UHGV virus genome: UHGV-0294841 | Reading direction: 5' to 3' (one strand) | Source: a virus | DNA length: 14,865 bases | Part shown: in pieces, positions 1 to 358 of the stretch | Layout: every line of letters starts with the position of its first letter | Position numbering within the stretch: position 1 is the stretch's first letter | Program-made: the position numbers and the translations under genes | Notes under the pieces: model-generated | The model's input: only the letters and a program-made list of their open reading frames with translations | What the model was told of the DNA's origin: nothing | Database searches by the model: none

Positions 1-136
1 GCAGCAAATCAGCAGTTATATTCTGAATTATTACAATAGCGTCAGGCCTCACCATTATAACGGAGGGCTGACGCCGGAAGAGTCAGAGAACAGATACCAT
101 TTTTACTGTAAAACCGTGGCCAGTATTACTTGACCA

Positions 137-358
137 CTACAGTATGACAACCACGGAGAAGCCCTCTTTCAGCTCCTGCCAGTAGTCGGTCTGGCTTTTG
201 TTTTCTCCCGGAGAGTCATCACCCGGTACCACATACGCCGCCGGGAGTCTCAGCTTTCCGACCTCCGGCAGATTTTTGAACTGTGCCGCGCCTGCCACCC
301 GGTTTTCAAAATACGGGCAGCGGGCACGCAGCGCAGCAATAACAGGCGTCAGTTTCAT
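137..358 (-). CDS. Phage virion/tail-side protein, probably an N-terminal fragment (family uncertain)
   Basis: 73-aa ORF whose ATG (356-358) overlaps the stop of the upstream gene in an ATGA coupling, so the start is genuine. The ORF stops abruptly at 137 and the 136 bp beyond are AT-richer with no ORF. Confidence 0.4.
   Translation of the reverse strand: MKLTPVIAALRARCPYFENRVAGAAQFKNLPEVGKLRLPAAYVVPGDDSPGENKSQTDYWQELKEGFSVVVIL

Follow-up and report, generated by a model that had tools for sequence, protein, structure and literature searches.

A run of prophage virion genes that stops abruptly at one end of a sequence raises the question of whether the phage itself or only its assembly ends there. 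The window, i.e., the whole stretch of 14,865 nt analyzed here, carries on its minus strand phage genes for a Q antiterminator, holin, lysozyme, Rz, HNH endonuclease, small and large terminase subunits, YmfR, portal, S78 protease, HK97-type capsid, connector and head-closure proteins and a 168-aa protein, and the prophage is of a type in which an HK97-type head is combined with a Mu-type contractile tail and a lambdoid Q/lysis region. It has the gene order in common with the SfV/e14 group (HNH, TerS, TerL, YmfR, portal, protease, capsid, connector, terminator, Mu-like tail), and over 136–1300 it shows 94–98% nucleotide identity to the Shigella phages SfV, SfI, SfII and SfIV and to e14-family prophages of E. 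coli. The last gene of the minus-strand run encodes 73 aa, and an earlier note had read the left end as a deletion or insertion boundary, which would make the prophage a defective one lacking tail genes or would mark the edge of another inserted element. We consider it highly probable that the tail terminator gene has been split by a simple insertion of an ISEc31-type element and that the assembly broke inside this repeat.

An important step was to examine what the short last gene corresponds to in related phages. The earlier note had regarded it as a truncated tail-side gene linked to its upstream neighbor, and both points have held: the ORF call gives the same 73-aa frame, and its start codon and the stop codon of the upstream gene overlap in ATGA. 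Almost all homologues of the product, in a search of 5.8 billion proteins, have 186 aa, and the 73 aa, all native to the phage, are identical to residues 1–73 of the 186-aa protein of E. coli CFSAN061770. In the uninterrupted prophage of this strain (L002), the intact allele of 561 nt is annotated as phage tail terminator protein and is followed by genes for DUF2635, sheath, tube, assembly chaperone, tape measure and DNA-circularisation proteins. The Pfam profile of this family (PF23840, Phage_tail_terminator; cut-off, 27 bits) matches the 73-aa fragment with 44 bits at profile positions 8–78 of 150 and the intact allele with 93 bits at positions 8–141. Compared with the known tail terminators of PF23840, the window copy keeps residues 1–73 only, and the domain is incomplete, with 73 of the 186 residues left before a stop codon that belongs to inserted DNA: direct reading places this stop, TAG at 137–139 on the minus strand, within the terminal repeat of an insertion sequence (IS). 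Judging from these alignments, we conclude that the 73-aa product is a fragment of the 186-aa tail terminator, and the alignment with full-length homologues that the earlier note had proposed has thus borne out its suspicion. The terminator gene has the neck/tail-completion gene on one side and the sheath gene on the other. The upstream neighbor gave zero matches in a Pfam search; its homologues are annotated as hypothetical protein or, in SfV-type phages, as tail completion or Neck1.

When the PDB was searched by sequence with the intact terminator, nothing meaningful was found, and a fold search was therefore needed. An AlphaFold model was made for P0003, a full-length 186-aa relative that is 99% identical to the intact allele, and its confidence was moderate (pLDDT 68, TM about 0.5). 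The best matches of this model in the PDB by Foldseek were solved tail terminators or collars, namely Salmonella STM4215 (2GJV), the phage Mu terminator (9KHY), the pyocin R2 collar (6U5F), T5 p142, T4 gp15 and lambda gpU, with E values from 1e-6 to 1e-3, as well as the proteins of phages 7-7-1 and Milano, and the predicted fold thus appears to be that of a tail terminator. According to the model, the truncation would cost this fold its long helix (85–100) and two long strands (112–138).

We next consider the sequence to the left of this gene (Table 1). In a megablast search against complete E. coli genomes and phages, homology to SfV/SfI/SfII-type phages and e14-family E. coli prophages ends at about 136–141, and the first 141 nt of the window show 100% identity to the right-hand 141 nt of an IS of 1258 bp in E. 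coli AST217 (L001:4884–6141), which is annotated as "IS3-like element ISEc31 family transposase" and has the ends TGTAGTGG...CCACTACA. In this AST217 copy, OrfA and OrfB overlap and are joined by a -1 programmed frameshift, with the slip site A AAA AAG at L001:5216–5222, and the 1258 bp fall within the 1.2–1.55 kb expected for the IS3 family; its OrfA has an HTH_Tnp_1 domain, and its OrfB has an rve domain (PF00665, 99.5 bits) and matches the IS3 family transposase model NF033516 of NCBIfam with 302 bits (cut-off, 160 bits). The earlier note had described bases 1–136 as AT-richer and without an ORF. The former is correct (GC is 43% in 1–141 vs 57% in 142–358), but as a mark of foreign DNA it was set aside, 19% of the 141-nt windows in the contig being as AT-rich. 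The latter does not hold: a plus-strand frame ends together with the transposase CDS that is annotated in L001, its 43 C-terminal codons are identical to those of the reference OrfB, and it had escaped notice because it runs off the window edge. The transposase lies on the strand opposite to the phage late genes.

Table 1. Features at the left end of the window.
Feature	Position	Strand	Basis or remark
Right-hand 141 nt of ISEc31-type IS3-family IS	1..141	+	100% identity to AST217 copy
3' end of IS transposase (orfB part of OrfAB), 43 codons plus TGA at 131–133	2..133	+	Translation
Right terminal inverted repeat, ending ...CCACTACA	112..141	+	IRL/IRR comparison
3-bp target-site duplication GTA, right copy	142..144	.	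Comparison with L022 and L002
Truncated phage ORF, 73 aa	137–358	minus	Last gene of minus-strand phage run
Native codons 1–73 of tail terminator gene (intact gene, 186 codons)	140..358	-	Identity to CFSAN061770
Upstream neighbor, 168 aa	355..861	-	ORF list

The search for IS ends across 1–136, which had also been proposed earlier, thus recovered a terminal repeat. Both ends have the TG...CA form, with the left repeat (IRL) starting as TGTAGTGGCACAG... on a companion contig described below and the right repeat (IRR) ending as ...CTTGACCACTACA at 112–141 of the window; both repeats begin with TGTAGTGG and agree at 20 of their first 30 positions. ISEc31, a member of the IS3 family with IS911-like ends, is characterized by TG...CA ends, a 3-bp target duplication, OrfA/OrfB, the A AAA AAG frameshift site and the rve domain, and its RefSeq-annotated copies show 100% identity both to the 141 nt of the window and to 139 nt of the companion contig. 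In these 141 + 139 nt of ends no difference from ISEc31 is detectable, and only the insertion site is new. On this sequence identity, bases 1–141 are assigned to the right end of an ISEc31-type IS3-family element, which is known and widespread in E. coli and is a routine entry in mobile-element surveys of this species. The window therefore does contain the edge of another inserted element, as the earlier note had suggested. A promoter and terminator scan of 1–900 gave counts that did not exceed those in shuffled sequence, and no outward hybrid promoter was evident at the IS end.

At the junction, the IS occupies 1–141, and phage sequence starts at 142 with GTA: the window reads ...CCACTACA|GTATGACAAC, and the intact site in L002 is CCCGTTACTCAGTATGACAAC. 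From the AST217 IS and the intact gene, we predicted the far junction of a simple insertion with the duplicated target GTA, ...CCCGTTACTCAGTA|TGTAGTGGCACAG, together with a chimeric ORF of 132 aa that has a GTG start in the IS left end and continues into terminator codons 72–186. This 132-aa sequence was found exactly, on a single public contig, k141_28337 (15,859 nt; L022), which belongs to the same assembly as the window (ERZ27308813). A homology search with the predicted chimeric ORF had not listed this target, because it was hidden in a cluster represented by a partial protein (P0072). Two C-terminal fragments of 118 aa (P0122) and 92 aa (P0128) had been considered as the far side and were rejected as unrelated frameshift or deletion alleles of other strains. 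The first 139 nt of the companion contig match the IS left end completely and contain OrfA codons 1–22, and in the window orientation the contig reads ...CCCGTTACTCAGTA|TGTAGTGGCACAG, as predicted; GTA is accordingly present at both IS ends as a direct duplication, in keeping with the 3–4 bp usual for the IS3 family. The insertion point is between codons 72/73 and 74 of the terminator gene. When the IS and one GTA are deleted, the 186-aa ORF identical to the CFSAN061770 protein is restored, and the rebuilt region is 99.975% identical to the prophage of this strain over 8008 nt without a gap. On the basis of the common sample, the complementary junctions, the matching duplication and the exact restoration of the gene, the window and k141_28337 would be derived from one genome.

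Beyond the IS end and the GTA duplication, k141_28337 carries the rest of the terminator gene and then genes for DUF2635, sheath, tube, chaperone, tape measure and DNA-circularisation proteins, baseplate genes resembling Mu gp44–48, and a fiber gene, which together constitute an apparently intact, full contractile tail module of the Mu/SfV type. The earlier statement that no tail genes follow is therefore an artefact of the contig end. The earlier note had also named two observations that would speak against its reading, i.e., homologues that are full-length at about 73 aa and tail genes immediately beyond the window; the homologues have 186 aa, not 73, and tail genes do follow, after an IS of roughly 1.26 kb. 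As a whole, its observations were right concerning the gene fragment and the ATGA overlap and wrong concerning the missing ORF and the missing tail genes, and of its interpretation, the gene truncation and the boundary with an inserted element have survived, but not a deletion or the absence of the tail.

The right junction was found also in independent assemblies, L009 (NCBI GCA_002917255.1) and L011 (Logan, 15 samples); since these come from an independent isolate and from sequencing runs, the junction represents a real allele of a lineage and not a chimera. None of 5426 complete E. coli genomes has the exact junction, and neither the predicted left junction nor the window's right junction was found when JGI metagenome contigs and GTDB representative genomes were scanned for the exact patterns; these two collections do not hold this allele, and their negatives therefore say nothing about the other side.

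The abrupt end of the virion module can be explained by the assembly process. An exact-protein look-up showed that the window is the entire metagenome contig k141_55853 (14865 nt) of ENA assembly ERZ27308813, and this contig reaches exactly 141 nt into the IS, 141 being the k-mer size of megahit. The IS end is present in 2181 of the 5426 complete E. coli genomes, in up to 16 copies each, on chromosomes and plasmids, and the megahit assembly at k=141 broke inside the IS because it is a multicopy repeat. The end of the virion module is thus an assembly boundary and not a biological one. A contig that stops k bases into an IS can mimic a truncated or tail-less prophage, and when a gene is cut early at a contig edge, a comparison of this edge with the IS repertoire and with companion contigs is advisable before the prophage is called cryptic.

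The course of events that we propose is as follows. An ISEc31-type IS3-family element would have transposed into codon 72/73 of the terminator gene in an SfV/e14-family prophage of E. coli and duplicated the 3-bp target GTA. The N-terminal 73 codons would now read into the IS terminal repeat and end at its TAG, and the remaining 113 codons would lie beyond the IS, directly followed by the apparently intact tail module. In assembling the short reads into a de Bruijn graph, megahit (k=141) would then have broken off in the IS and left a contig ending 141 nt into it. The insert would be a single copy of 1258 bp, with length and single-copy structure taken from the AST217 copy, because the assembled parts of this IS are its two ends of 141 + 139 nt.

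The assembled ends, being just 141 and 139 nt, would also fit an insert larger than one IS, i.e., two ISEc31 copies around other DNA (a composite transposon) or tandem ISs, and the IS is multicopy in E. coli, plasmids included. We nevertheless regard this as improbable, since a left and a right end that are properly oriented and enclosed by a 3-bp duplication are the pattern of a single IS, and complete genomes show the single 1258-bp form in the terminator gene. The main reading of the earlier note, in which an IS-associated deletion removed the tail module and left a heads-only cryptic prophage, has a precedent in the strains PS1Thumoskin9 (L013:2825–4082), 602687 and CD45. In these, a related IS3-family element (92.8% identical) lies near codon ~101 of the same gene in the same orientation and abuts a truncated tail-fiber-assembly gene (tfa), which is followed by pinE, mcrA and icd; the genes from sheath to baseplate have really been deleted, and the tail-less cryptic scenario therefore exists in relatives. 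The strain of the window, in contrast, retains its tail genes, and with the left IS end joined to the rest of the terminator, a matching 3-bp duplication and a complete tail module, such a deletion is very unlikely here. Least credible, and hardly worth retaining even though frameshifted alleles are known (e.g., the 62-aa + 118-aa split in L016–L019), is that the 73-aa ORF represents a short gene in its own right or has arisen by a point mutation or frameshift and that bases 1–136 are ordinary phage intergenic DNA, because the alignment left of 142 shows no phage similarity but identity to the IS end, the stop codon lies within the IS, and the homologues have 186 aa.

Concerning the consequence of the simple insertion, the tail terminator is a hexameric cap that stops polymerisation of tube and sheath and forms the head-joining face, and without it, tails are neither completed nor joined to heads, as for lambda gpU and T4 gp15. 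The head module is colinear with intact relatives, the only alignment gap being a junction artefact, and every other virion gene of the prophage looks intact. The prophage would therefore be able to make heads and most tail parts but would be without a functional terminator, and infectious particles would not be expected unless the IS is lost. The earlier notion of a defective prophage lacking tail genes is thus probably right in its first half, but the cause of the defect would be the interruption of a single essential tail gene and not a missing tail module. The prophage has probably been disabled recently by a single event. The biological weight of this finding is small, because IS insertion into prophage genes is a well-known route of decay and ISEc31 is common in E. 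coli; the event is an ordinary one of an already known kind.

The terminator gene is uninterrupted in the SfV, SfI, SfII, SfIV and e14-family references, unlike in the window. In AST217, an ISEc31-type element has been inserted near codon 109 with the target duplication ACC, and the tail genes are retained. Together with the PS1Thumoskin9 group, three independent insertions at three sites have thus occurred in the same orientation in this 561-bp gene. Such repeated hits by ISEc31-type elements could be due to coincidence, relaxed selection in prophages or regional target preference. That the terminator gene of SfV/e14-type prophages is a preferred or selected target of these elements, with tail inactivation as a recurrent route of domestication, is an idea that we consider unlikely; if true, the host would keep the cargo, i.e., the iss/bor serum-survival gene and the three-gene cassette by Q, and lose the production of infectious phages.

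The terminator gene has been split also without an IS. In L015 (GCA_043359715.1) and L016–L019, frameshifts divide it into ORFs of 62–74 aa and 118 aa, which shows that this prophage family has also decayed independently through point mutations; L015 has a split sheath gene as well. Contigs carrying the same 73-aa protein were without the IS in seven of ten cases (L004, L005, L006, L007, L008, L010 and L012), and these seven end at ...GTCATACTG(AG), 0–2 nt past codon 73. Numerous further partial proteins in public collections begin between codons about 59 and 85 (cluster members P0140–P0151). These contig ends and partial proteins indicate that many E. coli assemblies break here for another reason, and the breaks near codon 73 may reflect a homology boundary between co-resident related prophages.

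Several features of the rest of the prophage should also be mentioned. A Bor/Iss-type lipoprotein gene (PF06291) is located at 8326–8619 (+) between the lysis genes and the HNH/terminase genes, and the homologue in the matching prophage of E. coli NT1F10 is annotated as "increased serum survival lipoprotein Iss"; this is virulence-associated cargo that is intact in a probably disabled prophage. Between the Q antiterminator gene (12368–12757, minus strand) and the holin gene, three co-oriented genes for 365, 140 and 211 aa occupy 10234–12392 (+) on the strand opposite to the phage late genes. They had no matches in a Pfam search, and the third (211 aa) gave a weak PADLOC match to a candidate defense family, PDC-S54 (E 7e-6); these three genes, which several pig-associated E. 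coli genomes carry with 99.3% identity, may form a moron or defense cassette. The right contig end is also inside a gene (14599–14865, minus strand), which the match to the NT1F10 prophage identifies as that of a RusA-family Holliday-junction resolvase, and this end is probably another assembly break, in sequence common to lambdoid prophages.
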